From NCBI GenBank assembly GCA_017409875.1, contig JAFQRW010000022.1, positions 8,673-72,672 of the forward strand: 64,000 bases of DNA, given 5' to 3'. This DNA comes from Clostridia bacterium. GTDB taxonomy: Bacteria; Bacillota; Clostridia; RGIG6154. The position numbers and the translations under genes are program-made. Below, in pieces: positions 4,124-33,220 of this stretch; the stretch's first letter is position 1; every line of letters begins with the position of its first letter. Below the pieces are notes generated by a model. It did not search any database, was not told the DNA's origin, and saw only the letters and a program-made list of their open reading frames with translations.

Positions 4124-4377
4124 CTCAATTCGAAATCAATTTCATATTGTAACCGCCTAATTTTTTCTTCGTGCTTCTTTATTTGTTGTTCAAGTTTGGC
4201 TTTGCGGTTTTCTTTTTCCCATTGTCTGTCAAATTCAATCTTATATGTGGTGTGCTTTCTTTTGATATATGTGCCTGTGCATCCATCACTCTTAACAAGG
4301 TCATTTCCTCTATTGCAAATCCACCAACCCAAACGAATCAAAGTAAAACCAAGCCAGCAAGCTACACGCTTAATCAT
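4120..4377 (-). CDS. Hypothetical phage protein
   Basis: 85 aa; N-terminal TM-like segment followed by a basic coiled region. Confidence 0.4.
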   Translation of the reverse strand: MIKRVACWLGFTLIRLGWWICNRGNDLVKSDGCTGTYIKRKHTTYKIEFDRQWEKENRKAKLEQQIKKHEEKIRRLQYEIDFELR

Positions 4378-4652: not shown

Positions 4653-4872
4653 TTTTTAATCTTGTTCCTAAATAAAAATCCCAATACTTTCTCCCACAAT
4701 GAGGGCATAGGTCATCATATCTTTCGTGTCCGTTAGCGTGCGTAACGCAAATTATACAACTATCCTCTGCTTTATCTTGATAAATCGCACCACATCTGTC
4801 ACACTTCTTTACATCAGCCATCACTCCGCACCGCCCTTCTCGGTTGGGTGGGTGAATACTGTCTTTGCACAA
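4621..4872 (-). CDS. Zinc-ribbon phage protein
   Basis: 83 aa; CDRCG...CPHCG. Confidence 0.4.
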   Translation of the reverse strand: MCKDSIHPPNREGRCGVMADVKKCDRCGAIYQDKAEDSCIICVTHANGHERYDDLCPHCGRKYWDFYLGTRLKNEEWDNGKVY

Positions 4873-5152: not shown

Positions 5153-5557
5153 CTAACTATTACCTTGCAGAGCCTTACGAGCTTCCGCTTCAGTTAAAAA
5201 TACTGTTTTGCCAAAATCATCAGCGGTGCAGCATCCGTTAAATCCATTTTTATACAGGTGAATCTGCAGCAGATTATTAAACTCCGGCCGTATCATATAC
5301 GAAGTAACTTCCAGAGGATGTACTTTGCCCTTGTAAATCATATAAACCGTCTGCCGATACTTAAAGTCCGGCAGAGCAATTACATTCTCCGCAGGAACAT
5401 TAAAGAATTTGCACTCTTTCCCGCAGCACTGCCCAAAGGTCAGCATATTTGTTACCTTGCAATTTGCATATCCGTCAGGCAAGCTGTTCTCTTTATCAAA
5501 ATTATAGCAGTTCTCACACCAATGCTTTTCAATTTCTAACATTTCCGCTTCTGTCAT
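5153..5557 (-). CDS. Hypothetical Cys-rich phage protein
   Basis: 134-aa ORF. Confidence 0.45.
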   Translation of the reverse strand: MTEAEMLEIEKHWCENCYNFDKENSLPDGYANCKVTNMLTFGQCCGKECKFFNVPAENVIALPDFKYRQTVYMIYKGKVHPLEVTSYMIRPEFNNLLQIHLYKNGFNGCCTADDFGKTVFLTEAEARKALQGNS

Positions 5558-5564
5558 AAATCAA

Positions 5565-5873
5565 TCACTCCTTTGCTACTTCCTCAAACCTCTTTAAAAA
5601 TCTCAGTATAGTTCTTGGACTGTAGTGCAATACATCTGCTATCTCTTTAACAGTCCGCCCATTGTTATACCTCAGCCTTGCCGCTTCCTTGATTTTTTCA
5701 TCAAGAGTAACAGGTGGTAAAATAACGCCGTTTGCAAGAAGATGGTCGGCAACCTTTTGTATTGTGCCTATAGAATATCTGTCTCCAAATGTAAACAGTT
5801 CCAAAGGCGCATTGCTTAATATATTAACTAATCTTTCCTGTGCCTTCATTGTACTTATACTTCCTTTATCCAC
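5565..5873 (-). CDS. HTH-domain phage protein (possible transcriptional regulator)
   Basis: 102 aa; C-terminal HTH (TVKEIADVLHYSPRTILRFLKRF). Confidence 0.45.
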   Translation of the reverse strand: MDKGSISTMKAQERLVNILSNAPLELFTFGDRYSIGTIQKVADHLLANGVILPPVTLDEKIKEAARLRYNNGRTVKEIADVLHYSPRTILRFLKRFEEVAKE

Positions 5874-6649
5874 AATATTTCCTCTCTTTTTAACCCTTTT
5901 TCAGCAGTATTAGATATGCTAATTTTTCGCCAATCACTTAAATGCTTTTCATAAATCTCATTCTGGTACCCACTCAAAATCACAGGTCCTTGATGTTGTA
6001 AAAGAGCTTCTATAAGCTCTATGTGTTGTTCATCTGTCATTTCAAAATTATAGCTTTTACCTCCGCTTCGTGTTGACAACACATAAGGCGGGTCAGCATA
6101 TATTAAAACATTAGGATAATTAAACCGTTTAATAAGCTGAAGTGCGTCACAATGCTCAATTTGAACTTCTTTTAGTCTGTCCACGGCCAGCTCTATCCAT
6201 TGCGGAAGTCTATACCAATTCCTAAGAGCATATGCAGCCTCTCGCCCTTGCACATCATTCTTCCATCCTGAACGATGGCCTTTAATATTTCTAAATCCAT
6301 GACCTTGCCAACATTTGATTAAAAAAGCTCTTGCCTTTTCTATATCATCTGCAGGTACACTGTTATATGCGTTTTCGTACTCTTGTCTGGAATATGGCGT
6401 ATATGTAAGTGAACGTATTAGCGGTTCTGCATCATTCCTTACAACTCTAAACAAATTTACAACATCTTCGTCCAAGTCATTTATAGTTTCTATTGCAGAA
6501 GGTTTTTTTTTAAATAACACTGCTCCACTTCCAAAAAAGGGTTCAACATAACTGTGATGCTTTGGCATATTTGAAATAATCCAATCAGCAATTCGCCATT
6601 TGGCTCCTGGATATTTTAATATCGCTTTCACACTCTTCCACCCTTTCAA
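5855..6649 (-). CDS. dam: N6-adenine DNA methyltransferase, Dam family (phage orphan MTase)
   Basis: 264 aa; motif I FFGSGAV; motif IV DPPY (IYADPPYVLS); Dam-type order. Confidence 0.85.
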   Translation of the reverse strand: MKGWKSVKAILKYPGAKWRIADWIISNMPKHHSYVEPFFGSGAVLFKKKPSAIETINDLDEDVVNLFRVVRNDAEPLIRSLTYTPYSRQEYENAYNSVPADDIEKARAFLIKCWQGHGFRNIKGHRSGWKNDVQGREAAYALRNWYRLPQWIELAVDRLKEVQIEHCDALQLIKRFNYPNVLIYADPPYVLSTRSGGKSYNFEMTDEQHIELIEALLQHQGPVILSGYQNEIYEKHLSDWRKISISNTAEKGLKREEILWIKEV

Positions 6650-8859: not shown

Positions 8860-9909
8860 TTAATTCTCTCCTTCTGCTTTTGCACTTTGCAAAATATCAT
8901 TTATTCTTCTGTCCATATCCTTGCCAAGCCTATAACAGTTTCCTTGTGATATATGATTTTTCCAAGCATTATACGAAGTATAAAACTTTTCTGCAGGAAG
9001 TTTCCCTTCGACTACAAGCTTTGCCATCTTTATATATTTCTTTTGTTTATTTCGCTTGTTTTGGTTTTTAAGTCTCCTTATCACTTTTCCGCTTCCGGTT
9101 AAATAAAAATGAAAACCCAAGTAGCTTATACCATTTTTCAGCGGAGATATTTGCGTTTTACCATTTAAAGTTAAATCCAGTGTCTTTAAAAACTCTGTTA
9201 TTACCCCAAGGCAATATTTTAAATACTCCTTACTCTGATGAATAAGCCAGAAATCGTCCATAAACCTTCCGTAATACTCAATCCCAAGCTCACCCTTTAT
9301 AAGCTTGTCCATGCCGTCTAAATAAAGAAGTGCAAAACCCTGGTTGATTTGATTTCCCAAAGGTATTCCTGCTCCTTCAGTACTGTCAATAAACAAATTG
9401 CAAAGATTACAAATATCCTCATCATAGGAAAAGTAATAATTGACAATATCCTTTAACTGTTCGTGAGAAATACTGTAGAAAAACTTGGTTACATCACATT
9501 TTAAAATATATCCGTTAATGCCGTGCTTTTGGTAAAACGCCTGCATCTGTTCTGATAACCTATCCCGACCAAAGGACGTACCCTTTCCAATCTGTCCGGC
9601 ACAGTTATCATATATAAACACATCTTTCAGTTTTGGTAAAATCACATTATCACATAAGCTGTGTTGCACAACCTTATCTTTAAAAGAGGTTGTTTTAATG
9701 ATGCGTTCTTTAGGCTCATATACTTTAAATTCGGTGTATTCAGACACCTTATATGTTTTGTTTTTCAACTGCTCTACAAGAGTATTAACACCATCTAAAG
9801 CCATGATGTTAAACTTTGCCGAGCTTTTCTTAAAGCCTTTACCGCACTTTGACCTTCTGTAAGCCTTATACATATTCCCAAAATCTGTTACTTTTTCAAA
9901 GTCGGTCAT
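8860..9909 (-). CDS. DGR reverse transcriptase
   Basis: RT motif B' GIPLGNQINQGFALLYL (a LGxxxNQ variant of the DGR IGxxxSQ signature); motif C YGRFMDDFWLI; start set at MTDFEK, which has an AAGGAG RBS; adjacent to TR, Avd and VR. Confidence 0.85.
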   Translation of the reverse strand: MTDFEKVTDFGNMYKAYRRSKCGKGFKKSSAKFNIMALDGVNTLVEQLKNKTYKVSEYTEFKVYEPKERIIKTTSFKDKVVQHSLCDNVILPKLKDVFIYDNCAGQIGKGTSFGRDRLSEQMQAFYQKHGINGYILKCDVTKFFYSISHEQLKDIVNYYFSYDEDICNLCNLFIDSTEGAGIPLGNQINQGFALLYLDGMDKLIKGELGIEYYGRFMDDFWLIHQSKEYLKYCLGVITEFLKTLDLTLNGKTQISPLKNGISYLGFHFYLTGSGKVIRRLKNQNKRNKQKKYIKMAKLVVEGKLPAEKFYTSYNAWKNHISQGNCYRLGKDMDRRINDILQSAKAEGEN

Positions 9910-10016
9910 ACAACACAGCTCCTTTTTGTTTATCCATACGGAAAGGTTGTGCATTCTTTTGGTGTGGTGTTCTGATTTCGGCTTATTGCCTACTCTGTCT
10001 GACTATCCACCAGTAC

Positions 10017-10081
10017 GGGCGAACGCCGTTATTGTTGTTGTAGTTATTGTTATTGTTGATATTACCCGAGGGCGAAACGCA
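10017..10081 (-). repeat. DGR template repeat (TR)
   Basis: 65 bp matching VR1 and VR2. The 36-nt core in coding orientation reads AAT ATC AAC AAT AAC AAT AAC TAC AAC AAC AAT AAC. All 21 TR/VR mismatches fall on TR adenines. Confidence 0.85.
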
Positions 10082-10110
10082 AAGAAAAATACAACGCACA
10101 ACCTATAAAT

Positions 10111-10479
10111 TTATTTTTTCTCTTTTGTTCTCCATGCAATAGACATATACTTCACATCAGAGACCATTTTTGACCAATACTCTGCAGACTTTGCATTAAG
10201 AATACCAAGCTCCATCGAAAGCTCAATGTATGTAAGAAGTTCATCACATAAGGTTATTGCTTTGGTTATTGTTTCACAACGCAGTTTCTTATCTGTTATA
10301 TTGCTTATTCTGTTTGCTTCCATAAGATTTTCGTATATATCCATACTTTTAAGCTGCAGCCTGTCCACAAGAGAATGTCTGTACTTTTTAGGATACCTGT
10401 TCGGATTGCTTGTAAGAACATATGTATGTTTCATAAGCTCCTTGGCTTTTATAACAACCTTCAAATCAGTATCACTCAT
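10111..10479 (-). CDS. avd: Avd-like accessory variability determinant (four-helix-bundle / IVS family)
   Basis: 122 aa, basic and helical; YPKKYRHSLVDRLQ...IYENLMEAN pattern of the IVS/Avd family; lies between the target and TR as in BPP-1. Confidence 0.65.
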   Translation of the reverse strand: MSDTDLKVVIKAKELMKHTYVLTSNPNRYPKKYRHSLVDRLQLKSMDIYENLMEANRISNITDKKLRCETITKAITLCDELLTYIELSMELGILNAKSAEYWSKMVSDVKYMSIAWRTKEKK

Positions 10480-10484
10480 AATTT

Positions 10485-11042
10485 TTACTCCTCAGAAGAT
10501 ACAAAGATATCAGATACAAAGACCAAAACCGGGCGAACGCCGCAATAGTAGTCGTAGTAATCGTAATTGCTGATATCACCCGAGGGCGAAACGCAAACGC
10601 ACCAGCGGTCATTTACATGTTCTGGAGTACTATCAGCTGTAGCGAGCCACCACCATGTATCAATCTTGTGTTTATCAAATATTTCTACATTATCCCTGTA
10701 AAAATCAAATGTAGGGATGCTTATCTTGCTTGTCATACTTCCATATGTCTTAAGTCCGTCAAGGCTTGTAAGGTCTGTCGCAAATTCAAGCACATTTTCC
10801 GCGCCTATTGCATCCTCAATTTTAGGTAATATTTCTTCTGTAAGTCTTTTTAAAATTTCACTTTGAGAAAAGTTGTTGTTTTTGCCGTATGTAGAACCAA
10901 AAACACATTCTTTAGCAACAACCACAGTTCCCTCTTCAGTTTCCTTTACCTTAATAAACTCAACTCCTGCAACGGGAAAAGTTTCACCAATTTTAACTTC
11001 TGATAATTTCATTTTTATTTCCTCCTGATTATTTAGATACAA
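10485..11042 (-). CDS. DGR target protein 1 (C-terminal VR, C-type-lectin-like ...WWWL...CGVRP tail)
   Basis: 185 aa; VR1 is in-frame 15 codons before the stop (CVSPSGDISNYDYYDYYCGVRP). Confidence 0.8.
   Translation of the reverse strand: MYLNNQEEIKMKLSEVKIGETFPVAGVEFIKVKETEEGTVVVAKECVFGSTYGKNNNFSQSEILKRLTEEILPKIEDAIGAENVLEFATDLTSLDGLKTYGSMTSKISIPTFDFYRDNVEIFDKHKIDTWWWLATADSTPEHVNDRWCVCVSPSGDISNYDYYDYYCGVRPVLVFVSDIFVSSEE
10531..10595 (-). repeat. DGR variable repeat VR1
   Basis: 65 bp; differs from TR at 10 positions, all at TR adenines. Confidence 0.85.
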
Positions 11043-11640
11043 AGATATTAGATTTTAAGATACAAAACGGGCGAACGCCGATATCGTCGTAGTAGCAATT
11101 GCCATCGTCGAAATTACCCGAGGGCGAAACGCACTTAACCCAATCGTCATCATCGTGAGTAGGTGTACTGTATGCAGTAGAAAGCCACCACCACTTGTCA
11201 AGTTTTTGCTTGTCAATAGCCTCAACCCATTTGCGATAGTCATTTGCAGTAATTAAAGACATCTTTCTTTTAATTGTTCCGTAGTCTTTTAAACCATCAT
11301 CAGATGTAAGGTCAACTTCATGTTCCATAATGTTGTCTTTGCCGACTATTTCTTCAATCTCTTCACCGAACGCACAGCACAGCTCGTCCACATGCGAACC
11401 GTCATAATTGTTGTTTGAACCAAACTTCTCCGAATCATTCAACAAGCCTTTAAGCAGTACGGCTGTTGCATCTTCCAAATGCTCCAACACAAAAAATTCA
11501 TACTGGCCCAGCTTAAATGTTTCTCCCGGCGCAATGTCAGATAGTTTAATTCCCGCTTCCGCGCCAAACGCCGCTTCGATTGCCTTGACCTGTTCTGCAG
11601 TCAATTCAATCCTTTGATTGTTAATACTTAAATAGTTCAT
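11029..11640 (-). CDS. DGR target protein 2 (paralogue of target 1, with C-terminal VR)
   Basis: 203 aa; VR2 encodes CVSPSGNFDDGNCYYDDIGVRP; overlaps target 1 by 14 nt. Confidence 0.8.
   Translation of the reverse strand: MNYLSINNQRIELTAEQVKAIEAAFGAEAGIKLSDIAPGETFKLGQYEFFVLEHLEDATAVLLKGLLNDSEKFGSNNNYDGSHVDELCCAFGEEIEEIVGKDNIMEHEVDLTSDDGLKDYGTIKRKMSLITANDYRKWVEAIDKQKLDKWWWLSTAYSTPTHDDDDWVKCVSPSGNFDDGNCYYDDIGVRPFCILKSNIFVSK
11070..11134 (-). repeat. DGR variable repeat VR2
   Basis: 65 bp; differs from TR at 11 positions, all at TR adenines. Confidence 0.85.
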
Positions 11641-11691
11641 TTTTCTACTCCTTTTTATGTAAATTTGACATTTCTAATATTTTATGTTAAA

Positions 11692-11904
11692 CTAATTATG
11701 CAAATTGGAGTCTACGCTATGCGTAGCATCCTGCTCGTCTTCTTCCACAAGACGGGCTTTTTTCTTTTCTTTGATATTGTCGGCCATAAGTACAATCGCA
11801 AGCACAGTCGCAGCCGATACACAAACACTTGTTATAACACAACAAAACCAAAGCCTAAATACCATCTCTGTAAAATCCAAATCAATCACTCCTTCCTCAC
11901 GCAA
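11692..11904 (-). CDS. Small single-TM hypothetical protein
   Basis: 70 aa with one hydrophobic helix. A plus-strand ORF on the same DNA looks like antisense noise. Confidence 0.3.
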   Translation of the reverse strand: MREEGVIDLDFTEMVFRLWFCCVITSVCVSAATVLAIVLMADNIKEKKKARLVEEDEQDATHSVDSNLHN

Positions 11905-13112: not shown

Positions 13113-13270
13113 TTACTCACCTCTCTTCAAAGTGAAGTTTCGTCACTTCTGGTTTTATTATAAGTGATTTTTTCGCACTTGTCAATAGTTTTTTAAAAAA
13201 TAAGTGAAATTTTGTCACACCATATTGAAATGTGATTGTTTTTCACTTATAATTATGTTGAGGTGAAAAT
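13113..13270. promoter_or_regulatory. Lysogeny switch region with four GTGA-N6-8-TCAC operator-like inverted repeats
   Basis: AGTGAAGTTTCGTCACT, AAGTGATTTTTTCGCACTT, AGTGAAATTTTGTCACA and TGTGATTGTTTTTCACT, all between the divergent XRE genes. Confidence 0.5.
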
Positions 13271-15409: not shown

Positions 15410-16543
15410 ATGCCAAAAGAAAGATTAAAGGGCGAAGGAACAGTCAGAAAGCGTTCCGATGGGCGCTGGATGGCTGAAATAATGATTAACAAAAAACGCA
15501 AATCCTTTTATTCCACAAAATCTGCTCAGGATGCACTACGCAAAATGAAACTATATTTAAGAAATCTTGAAGATTGCGTCCCGCCACCGGAAAAATATTT
15601 TGGAGAATATATAGAAAATTGGTACAAACTAAAAAAAGAGCCTAATTTAAAAATCATTTCGGCTCAAACACTAAAAGGTATTATTGACAACCATATTGTT
15701 CCTCGTATCGGCCATTATAAGCTCAACGAACTAACCTCTGAAATTATTGAACGTGAGCTTTTAAACCCTTTAAAGAAAACCCACTCTTATTCCAGGGTAA
15801 AAAAAGTATATGACTATACTAACGCATGTTTAAAATATGCGGTTGCAGAACGCCACATCATTTATAATCCAATGCTCACAGTTGAAAAGCCTAAAACAGC
15901 AAACTTTAAATTTAAAGAAATCGAGATTTTAAGTGATGATGAAATAGGAAAATTTATGGCCGCGCTGGATGCAACATATTCTACCGGAAGACCGATGGTG
16001 AGAAATGCGTATGCGTTTGCCGTTATATTGTATTCGGGCTTAAGAGAAGGAGAACTCTTTGCCCTTCGTTGGAAAGATTATGACAAAAACAAAAAAACAA
16101 TGCTCATAGACGGAAATCTGGTATGTGCCAAAGACGAATCAGGCAAATATAAAATGATTGAGCAATCCTCAACAAAAACAGTGGCAGGGCAAAGAAAAAG
16201 TCCTTTAGGCAAAAAGTGTATCGAAGCATTAGAAAAAATAAGAGAAATGTCAGAACACACTTCCCCTGATGATTTTATCGTTTGTACAAAAGACGGAAAG
16301 CCAATGCGACCAAGAAGTTTCCAAAAATCGCTTGATGCCCTTTCAAAAATCGCCGGCATAAAACACTTAACCCCACATATGCTGCGACACACTTTTGCCT
16401 CCATGTTAATCCAAAAAGGTGTGGATATAAAAGTAGTATCAGAACTTCTCGGCCACGCCTCAGTCAAAATAACTTATGATACATATGTTCACATAATTAA
16501 AGAGCAAAAAATAGAAGCTCTTAATAAATTGGATGAACTTTGA
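15410..16543 (+). CDS. int: Tyrosine-type phage integrase
   Basis: 377 aa; C-terminal catalytic HMLRHTFAS...LGHASVKITYDTYVH. Confidence 0.9.
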   Translation: MPKERLKGEGTVRKRSDGRWMAEIMINKKRKSFYSTKSAQDALRKMKLYLRNLEDCVPPPEKYFGEYIENWYKLKKEPNLKIISAQTLKGIIDNHIVPRIGHYKLNELTSEIIERELLNPLKKTHSYSRVKKVYDYTNACLKYAVAERHIIYNPMLTVEKPKTANFKFKEIEILSDDEIGKFMAALDATYSTGRPMVRNAYAFAVILYSGLREGELFALRWKDYDKNKKTMLIDGNLVCAKDESGKYKMIEQSSTKTVAGQRKSPLGKKCIEALEKIREMSEHTSPDDFIVCTKDGKPMRPRSFQKSLDALSKIAGIKHLTPHMLRHTFASMLIQKGVDIKVVSELLGHASVKITYDTYVHIIKEQKIEALNKLDEL

Positions 16544-17607: not shown

Positions 17608-17620
17608 GTATCTAACAATT

Positions 17621-17765
17621 AAACAGACGGGAGCTTGTGTTACAGGCTGAGAGGAAGGTAAGACCTTCGACCGATAACCTGATTTGGATAATGCCAACGT
17701 AGGGATGCCTGAATATAGCATATTTGCGAAAGTTATCAAAATCGATAATTTTCGCTTTTTTATTG
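17621..17765 (+). promoter_or_regulatory. TPP (THI-box) riboswitch with intrinsic terminator
   Basis: GGGAGC...CTGAGAGG...AACCTGATTTGGATAATGCCAACGTAGGGA; terminator GCGAAAG...CTTTCGC followed by T7. Confidence 0.85.
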
Positions 17766-22130: not shown

Positions 22131-22298
22131 AATAAAAATCCTTTCTTTTTTTAATAAAAAAGAGCAAACCAGTTTTTCAACTGAGTTTGCCCAGACGGTC
22201 GGCTGACTATATTTTACACTCCACCGCGGTAATCCGCGAAATCCGTCAGTTGTGTAAAACTACAATTAAATTTTACACTATTTTGTACTTTTTGTCAA
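22131..22298 (-). promoter_or_regulatory. Promoter (TTGACA-17-TAAAAT) plus structured leader with intrinsic terminator (candidate riboswitch/attenuator)
   Basis: Leader contains the CGCGGATTACCGCG hairpin, alternative pairings CTGACGG / GTCAGCCGACCGTC, CCGTCTGGGCA, and a terminator ending in T6 just before the RBS. Confidence 0.4.
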
Positions 22299-33057: not shown

Positions 33058-33131
33058 TGGAGCGGAAGACGAGATTCGAACTCGCGACGTTCACCTTGGC
33101 AAGGTGACGCTCTACCACTGAGCCACTCCCG
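33058..33131 (-). tRNA. tRNA-Gly (GCC)
   Basis: GCGGGAGTGGCTCAGTGGTAGAGCGTCACCTTGCCAAGGTGAACGTCGCGAGTTCGAATCTCGTCTTCCGCTCCA. Confidence 0.85.
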
Positions 33132-33220
33132 CATGTTGTCTTGAACAAGAAATATAATACCATATTTTTAAGTATTTGTAAAGGGTTTTTTGAAAAAAAA
33201 CACAATTTTTTCATTTTTAA

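Follow-up and report, generated by a model that had tools for sequence, protein, structure and literature searches.

A compact prophage diversity-generating retroelement with two small, predicted lectin-fold targets in a gut Clostridia genome

The 64,000-nucleotide (nt) stretch of contig JAFQRW010000022.1 from the metagenome-assembled genome of a Clostridia bacterium (the window) contains a cassette of about 2.8 kb with the components of a diversity-generating retroelement (DGR), located in a temperate-phage prophage of this gut Clostridia chromosome. All the components lie on the minus strand, in the order target gene 2, target gene 1, avd, template repeat (TR), structured spacer RNA and reverse transcriptase (RT). 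Target gene 2 (11029-11640) encodes a protein of 203 aa that carries a 30-residue N-terminal extension with respect to the 175-aa product of target gene 1 (10485-11012), which starts at the ATG at 11012, with an AGGAGG ribosome-binding site. They are followed by avd (10111-10479, 122 aa), the non-coding TR (10015-10083), the spacer RNA of about 105 nt (9910-10014) and the RT gene (8860-9909, 349 aa), and each target gene includes one variable repeat (VR), namely VR1 (10530-10597) in target 1 and VR2 (11067-11133) in target 2. The RT gene had been recognized in an earlier sequence-only reading of this DNA and is present, its start being most likely the ATG at 9909 rather than position 9954, where a longer open reading frame (ORF) of 364 aa begins, since the former has an AAGGAG ribosome-binding site and was picked by the gene callers on identical contigs, that is, at M16 of the longer ORF.

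The repeats carry the most direct evidence on the nature of the cassette. A repeat finder applied to the window returned one three-copy family, at 10016-10083, 10530-10597 and 11068-11135, in agreement with the three copies of a 65-bp element with identical flanks described in the sequence-only reading; its coordinates hold except for the VR2 65-mer, which lies at 11069-11133 and not at 11070-11134. In coding (minus-strand) orientation the 5' flank common to the copies is TGCGTTTCGCCCTCGGGT and the 3' flank GGCGTTCGCCCG; both are 100% identical among TR, VR1 and VR2, and each of them occurs exactly three times in the 64 kb against 0.01-0.03 occurrences expected by chance. The TR is 66-69 nt long and is composed of a 5' flank of 18-20 nt, a 36-nt A-rich core and a GC-rich 3' flank of 12-13 nt (GGCGTTCGCCCG). 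Codon by codon, the core reads AAT ATC AAC AAT AAC AAT AAC TAC AAC AAC AAT AAC, that is, ten AAY codons, one ATC and one TAC, which bears out the asparagine-codon array noticed before. Within the 65-mer, 10 positions of VR1 and 11 of VR2 depart from TR; when tabulated against the TR base, every one of these 21 differences is at an adenine (12 A>G, 9 A>T and no A>C), although adenines make up only 22 of the 65 nt (hypergeometric P = 2.8e-12). No substitution was found at a non-adenine position of TR, the outcome that had been set beforehand as contrary to a DGR. The changed codons are all non-synonymous (18/18) and none is a stop, in line with the proposal that the core can mutate without creating stop codons.

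Each VR is in frame with one of two paralogous genes, whose products are 44% identical, and terminates 14-15 codons short of that gene's stop codon, so the C-terminal placement claimed earlier is confirmed. DNA identity between the two genes is about 50% beyond the VR flanks, whereas inside the flanks each gene matches both the other and TR at 100%. This homogenisation of the flanks is the footprint expected if TR-derived cDNA had been copied into both targets. Chance and ordinary paralogy were considered as the origin of the repeats and were ruled out by the P value given above together with this sharp identity boundary.

The RT matches RVT_1 and phrog_1423 (E 1e-94), and its best match among solved structures is bRT from Bordetella phage BPP-1 (PDB 8ub7, E 2e-29, 106 bits), ahead of group II maturases (E 1e-11, 48 bits) and retron RTs (E 1e-6, 31 bits). 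The nearest annotated homologues found by tblastn all belong to DGR-carrying gut phages: nd12 (49% identity), followed by nd4, FP_Brigit, Lelie and Toutatis. This ranking of best hits, with bRT first and both group II and retron RTs well behind, supports its placement in the DGR clade. The RT contains the motifs EPKER, GIPLGNQINQ and YGRFMDDF, the last two as previously read, and its catalytic FMDD is intact. The Avd-like gene next to TR is an Avd homologue according to phrog_3206 ('Avd protein of DGR', E 9e-24), and TR occupies the intergenic region between avd and the RT gene, as had been proposed.

Both target proteins match phrog_9958; target 2 corresponds to GenBank MBQ2898008.1, annotated as a hypothetical protein. 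The AlphaFold model of target 2 (pLDDT, the predicted local distance difference test, 82) is similar to a lectin-fold fimbrial protein of Bacteroides, to many C-type lectins and to DUF6273 phage proteins in BFVD; domains of large tail proteins also occur among its structural relatives. In this model the VR forms a low-confidence loop (residues 176-187). The VRs would thus be displayed on a predicted protein of the DUF6273, C-type-lectin fold. No signal-like or transmembrane-like hydrophobic segment was found in target 1 or target 2, and with 175-203 aa neither has a tail-attachment domain.

The spacer between TR and the RT gene shows the marks of a conserved RNA. In an alignment of 70 distinct TR-to-RT spacers four short helices comprising 13 pairs were identified (minus strand, 10012-10008/9964-9960, 10003-10002/9970-9969, 9990-9988/9982-9980 and 9942-9940/9935-9933). 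In these helices 98.2% of the cells are paired, against 31-46% in controls in which the partners were slid by 1-3 columns; compensatory double changes occur in 8 of the 13 pairs, and no shuffle attained the observed values. The structure is evident only from the comparative analysis, as the single-sequence fold of the whole TR-spacer RNA was uninformative (z +2.2). A match to the Rfam RT-2 RNA (RF03077) at 9878-10007 reached 29.4 of the 40 bits set as gathering score (E 3.4e-5), and at the equivalent place seven of nine relatives scored 28-39 bits. The spacer can be aligned with the RT-2 consensus GUCAGACAGAGUAGGC...GCCGAAAUCAG...CAAAAGA...UAAA, but about 90 nt of the internal region of the model are absent from it. 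A full-scoring RT-2 (116 bits) was found in the DGR of a distant member of the Lachnospiraceae, also Clostridia (L064), at 5694-5919, between a TR that ends at 5688 and an RT that starts at about 5950. Judged by sequence similarity, the spacer is probably a shortened relative of RT-2 RNA, below the Rfam threshold for membership, and in Clostridia elements such as these the spacer RNA of the DGR would appear to be RT-2. By its position it would be the counterpart of the 'Sp' spacer of BPP-1 that primes cDNA synthesis.

Searches with the RT yielded 110 loci (L001-L110) from metagenome-assembled genomes of animal-gut Clostridia and from IMG/VR contigs, each of which was inspected by a diagonal scan. 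Nearly all loci with an RT identity of at least 66% have a TR of 61-76 nt about 60 nt before a long RT ORF, and two VRs about 510 and 1050 nt upstream; about 70 related prophages carry the same cassette. Across 70 such loci, 1457 of the 1485 TR/VR mismatches (98%) are at TR adenines, which make up 31% of TR, and about half of the TR adenines are changed in the family VRs, at first and second codon positions alike. Where the RT is more distant (35-45% identity), the TR has an ordinary length of 110-160 nt. A nucleotide search of GenBank phages with the 2.8-kb cassette gave no match. Across relatives the four-gene module is conserved while its neighbours vary; wherever these can be named, the lysis-lysogeny switch precedes it and the replication genes follow, and it never lies among genes for structural proteins. 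With an intact RT, an Avd, a non-coding TR, adenine-only VRs in putative lectin-fold targets and about 70 like loci, the DGR interpretation of the earlier reading is supported, and we consider it very probable that the cassette is a genuine and complete DGR that has rewritten both targets.

Some of the loci showed features of their own. A related prophage with 49% RT identity (L102) has three VRs in three tandem targets (4134-4211, 4728-4804 and 5321-5394) served by one TR. In a distant Clostridia DGR (L066) two TR-like copies (5274-5453 and 5521-5700), 247 nt apart, both pair with one VR and differ from each other at 16 positions, mostly non-adenines. Two structured RNAs that reach the Rfam gathering scores lie a few kilobases from the DGR in related prophages, a type-P5 twister ribozyme (L002, 9522-9581, minus strand) and a Gut-1 RNA (L058, 6897-6971, plus strand).

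In the window, the prophage carries on its plus strand the genes for an M78 peptidase and an XRE repressor, and on its minus strand a Cro-like gene, the DGR, and the genes for a single-stranded DNA-binding protein (SSB), an HNH nuclease, a Lin1244-type replication protein, a Dam methylase and the large terminase; the stop codon of the RT gene lies directly against the start codon of the SSB gene. The integrase gene (15410-16543) marks the prophage end at about 16.5 kb, and from about 17 kb the sequence is host chromosome, with a TPP riboswitch (17619-17723, plus strand), a ZMP/ZTP riboswitch (22182-22263, minus strand) and a tRNA-Gly(GCC) gene (33058-33132, minus strand). A probable early lytic promoter of the sigma-70 type on the minus strand (13157-13185, TTGACA-17-TATAAT) scored 12/12 in a consensus scan and is divergent from the repressor promoter on the plus strand (13225-13253). 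The region 13157-13253 has the arrangement of a classical divergent switch between the Cro-like gene and the XRE repressor, the latter followed by the M78 peptidase gene. No terminator-like site was found on the minus strand from the early promoter down to 8300. Because of the perfect promoter and this lack of terminator-like sites, the cassette would be co-transcribed in the early lytic transcript and silent in lysogens. Just upstream of target 2, on the plus strand, lies a possible small RNA (11665-11768), antisense to the 3' end of an ORF for a 70-aa membrane protein. A promoter-like TTGACA-17-TAAACT with a TG (11665-11693) precedes two hairpins and a T-run terminator (11733-11757); the fold has a z of -4.7, and the element is kept only in the two closest relatives.

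The error spectrum of this RT clade was derived from 131 distinct family VRs with 799 AAC-templated codons, a set in which VRs share descent and, being fixed, have already passed selection; in the window the TR core stretch considered is 10029-10063. At AAC codons the A-to-C change reached 8.3% at the first adenine and 0.1% at the second (one ACC and no TCC, GCC or CCC). Serine appeared at these sites as AGC in 87 cases and never as TCC, for which about 19 cases would be expected if both adenines shared the A-to-C rate. By context, A-to-C was found in 1 of 1115 cases for an A before C and in 7-8% for an A before A. Where the first position had changed to C, the second tended to be mutated as well, CGC and CTC being over-represented and CAC under-represented. 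The scarcity of A-to-C in the AC context is more likely a mutational bias than the outcome of selection at the protein level, because serine is clearly tolerated. With bRT in E. coli, misincorporation of G, which gives A-to-C, is raised to 26.8% in the NAC context (PMC12875486). Hence the profiles of bRT and of the family RT in the AC context are opposite, A-to-C being near-absent in the family VRs.

The cassette shares with the prototype DGR of BPP-1 (mtd-avd-TR-brt) the gene order target, avd, TR, RT, an AAY-rich TR core, the position of VR at the C-terminus of a (here predicted) C-type-lectin-fold domain and a structured RNA between TR and RT. Besides being the closest solved RT, bRT has EPKxR and GIPxG motifs that align with those of the window, including the equivalents of R74 and I181. 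The differences concern mainly size and setting. The 134-nt TR of BPP-1 contrasts with a TR of 66-69 nt with a 36-nt mutable core, and the single 381-aa trimeric tail-fibre tip protein of BPP-1 with two small tandem targets. Here there is no hairpin or cruciform after VR, the GC-rich 3' homology covers 12-13 nt, the cassette belongs to an early operon instead of lying beside tail genes, and the RT motif has NQ, not SQ.

The target(s)-avd-TR-RT order is the commonest DGR arrangement, with avd between target and TR corresponding to architecture B of Wu et al. (PMC5758913). According to the same work mutable TR cores span about 30-100 bp, which puts the 36-nt core towards the bottom of the reported range; for the 3' flank it quotes 20-40 bp, more than the 12-13 nt seen here. 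The DGRs of gut Oscillospiraceae and Faecalibacterium phages (nd4, nd12; Lelie, CP11, Roos, Pioen; Toutatisvirus) are closer in several respects, as they have gut Clostridia hosts, DUF6273 targets with VR at the C-terminal end of the target domain, and one TR with two VRs; small single-domain targets also exist among them (nd4_tgt2, Toutatis gp24). In those phages, however, one large Ig-domain 'tentaclin' usually adjoins the RT and the small target lies many kilobases off, whereas in the window both targets are small, in tandem and immediately upstream of avd, and their identity to the targets of those phages is only 27-40%. DUF6273 proteins, including small single-domain ones, are established DGR targets in gut Clostridia phages, with one TR and two VRs (PMC10743442, PMC11792537, bioRxiv 10.1101/2024.10.15.618418), and therefore a gut-phage DGR class with DUF6273 targets and two VRs is already published.

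A number of observations weigh against the cassette being a complete and working DGR of the usual kind. DGRs have a GC-rich initiation of mutagenic homing (IMH) sequence at the 3' end of VR and a diverged copy, IMH*, in TR, which sets directionality. In the window the 3' homology of TR and VR extends over only 12-13 nt, GGCGTTCGCCCG is the same in TR and both VRs with homology ending directly after it, and no IMH/IMH* distinction is discernible, so that what gives directionality must be VR-specific sequence further downstream or some other feature. A BPP-1-type hairpin 3' of VR1 or VR2 was absent from DNA folds of the 70 nt downstream on both strands (z +0.4 to +1.5 against shuffles); such hairpins or cruciforms are a feature of BPP-1-like phage DGRs and are not universal. 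Motif 4 of DGR RTs has the signature (I/L/V)GxxxSQ, and the RT of the window (9300-9330, minus strand) has LGNQINQ, with NQ in place of the hallmark SQ, a conservative variant present in 78 of 83 family RTs, only 2 of which have SQ. The Avd scores are under the curated cut-offs (NCBIfam DivGenRetAVD E 6e-10, Pfam bAvd E 2e-3, 23S_rRNA_IVP), both targets fall just under the Pfam DUF6273 (PF19789) threshold, and their location in the early region and lack of a secretion signal fit poorly with the usual tail-fibre picture. Finally, a look-up of the exact Avd found 12 contigs with this prophage, and in the five near-identical contigs from other assemblies that were retrieved and aligned to the window there are no differences at all in TR, VR1 or VR2, although two of them have a single nucleotide polymorphism elsewhere. 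Were the cassette not a DGR, its RT would be that of a retron, group II intron or defence system such as DRT3, and its repeats would be ordinary paralogous or duplicated sequence. Weak NCBIfam matches of the RT to group II RT (68 bits) and Drt3a (60 bits) and a Drt3a-like similarity in the PADLOC defence models point in that direction, but the former are far under their cut-offs (300 and 200 bits), as are hits to retron models, and the latter is only generic or sub-family, with nothing for Avd or the targets, for which the defence-RT reading was rejected. Against it also stand bRT as best solved relative, the presence of Avd, the strict confinement of the differences to adenines in the window and their 98% share family-wide, the non-coding repeat copy adjoining the RT, and the absence from the region of an intron RNA family, a retron msr/msd or a second DRT3 RT. 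That explanation is extremely improbable. The invariance of the VRs bears on a different proposal, namely that this was once an active DGR, now quiescent or disabled in the lineage, whose A-to-N differences record past homing. The exact target-2 protein was found on 10 contigs, and in other sets with identical backbones (L006/L084/L085 and L091/L092) the VRs are identical too. Likewise, some intact Faecalibacterium phage DGRs gave no read-level signal (Gulyaeva et al., PMC11792537). Yet all ORFs and the catalytic FMDD are intact, the flanks remain 100% identical, the spacer RNA is under structural constraint, and VRs frozen in lysogens would be expected because a DGR in an early lytic operon would be silent there, its expression probably taking place only on induction or infection. 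Moreover, consensus assemblies hide minor variants, and the near-identical samples, judging from their names, presumably come from one ruminant study and may not be independent. Invariant VRs beside a varying TR had been named in the sequence-only reading as evidence against a DGR; the VRs are indeed invariant among the near-identical copies, but so is TR. The VR-only polymorphism that it suggested looking for was missing from these copies and strong in a related lineage with 49% RT identity (L099-L104), where backbones differ by about 1% and VRs by 14-26%, mostly at TR-adenine sites. An exact search of the metagenome and viral collections for this TR found none, so no identical-TR relative offers a clean comparison. 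In sum, DGRs of this broader type turn over their VRs, and in this prophage lineage there is no variation between consensus assemblies; that the element is now quiescent or disabled seems quite unlikely.

The role of the diversified proteins is less settled than the identity of the element. Most likely the targets are putative binding or adhesion proteins of the phage, possibly on the virion. The published reading of small DUF6273 targets as Mtd-like receptor binders (PMC10743442) and the structural relatives that are large tail-protein domains agree with this. Alternatively, they would be not receptor-binding proteins of the virion but early-expressed binders, non-structural or serving the host, acting in the infected cell or released for the benefit of the lysogen. 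The constant location of the cassette between the switch and the replication genes suggests such a function, as do the small size of the targets, their lack of signal peptide, transmembrane segment and tail-attachment domain, and the small DUF6273 protein of Toutatis, which is also encoded in the early/replication region. In addition, a 2026 preprint describes a prophage DGR-targeted DUF6273 tentaclin that is expressed and turns up in the secretome of the bacterium in the absence of phage particles (bioRxiv 10.64898/2026.05.08.723808). Gene position, on the other hand, is no proof of timing or location, and we rank this role, possible but doubtful, behind the putative role in phage binding or adhesion. 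A broader proposal would join these strands, with a widespread and compact prophage DGR clade, early-expressed and signal-less targets of predicted lectin fold that act as diversified intracellular or host-serving binders (for instance against variable host or defence proteins), and an NQ-motif RT whose error spectrum differs intrinsically from that of bRT, with essentially no A-to-C in the AC context. As a whole this combination is rather unlikely.

If the cassette works as a DGR, the transcript of the early lytic operon would be the source of the proteins as well as of the TR-spacer RNA. The RT, together with Avd, would copy the TR RNA into cDNA, misincorporating nucleotides opposite the template adenines, and the cDNA would take the place of the homologous stretch of 65 nt close to the 3' end of one or the other target gene. 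The outcome would be the rewriting of the 12 core codons in a surface loop or hairpin of the putative DUF6273 ligand-binding domain, never with a stop codon. By analogy, priming and homing would follow the chemistry of Bordetella phage BPP-1.

As a DGR the cassette adds little to the present picture, since the abundance in gut Clostridia phages of DGRs acting on DUF6273 lectin-like proteins, in some cases at two sites, is already established. It is of interest rather as a minimal natural example, in which a TR of 66 nt, a set of 12 mutable codons, a spacer RNA of about 105 nt and targets of 175-203 aa fit into some 2.8 kb, with about 70 natural variants for comparison. Such a compact cassette would be useful for defining the minimal RNA and homology requirements of mutagenic homing and for engineering. 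Its constant position in the early operon invites one to ask which function the small targets of phage DGRs serve. Moreover, the context-dependent lack of A-to-C changes in a clade whose RTs carry the NQ motif provides a natural contrast to bRT for the study of the error spectrum.

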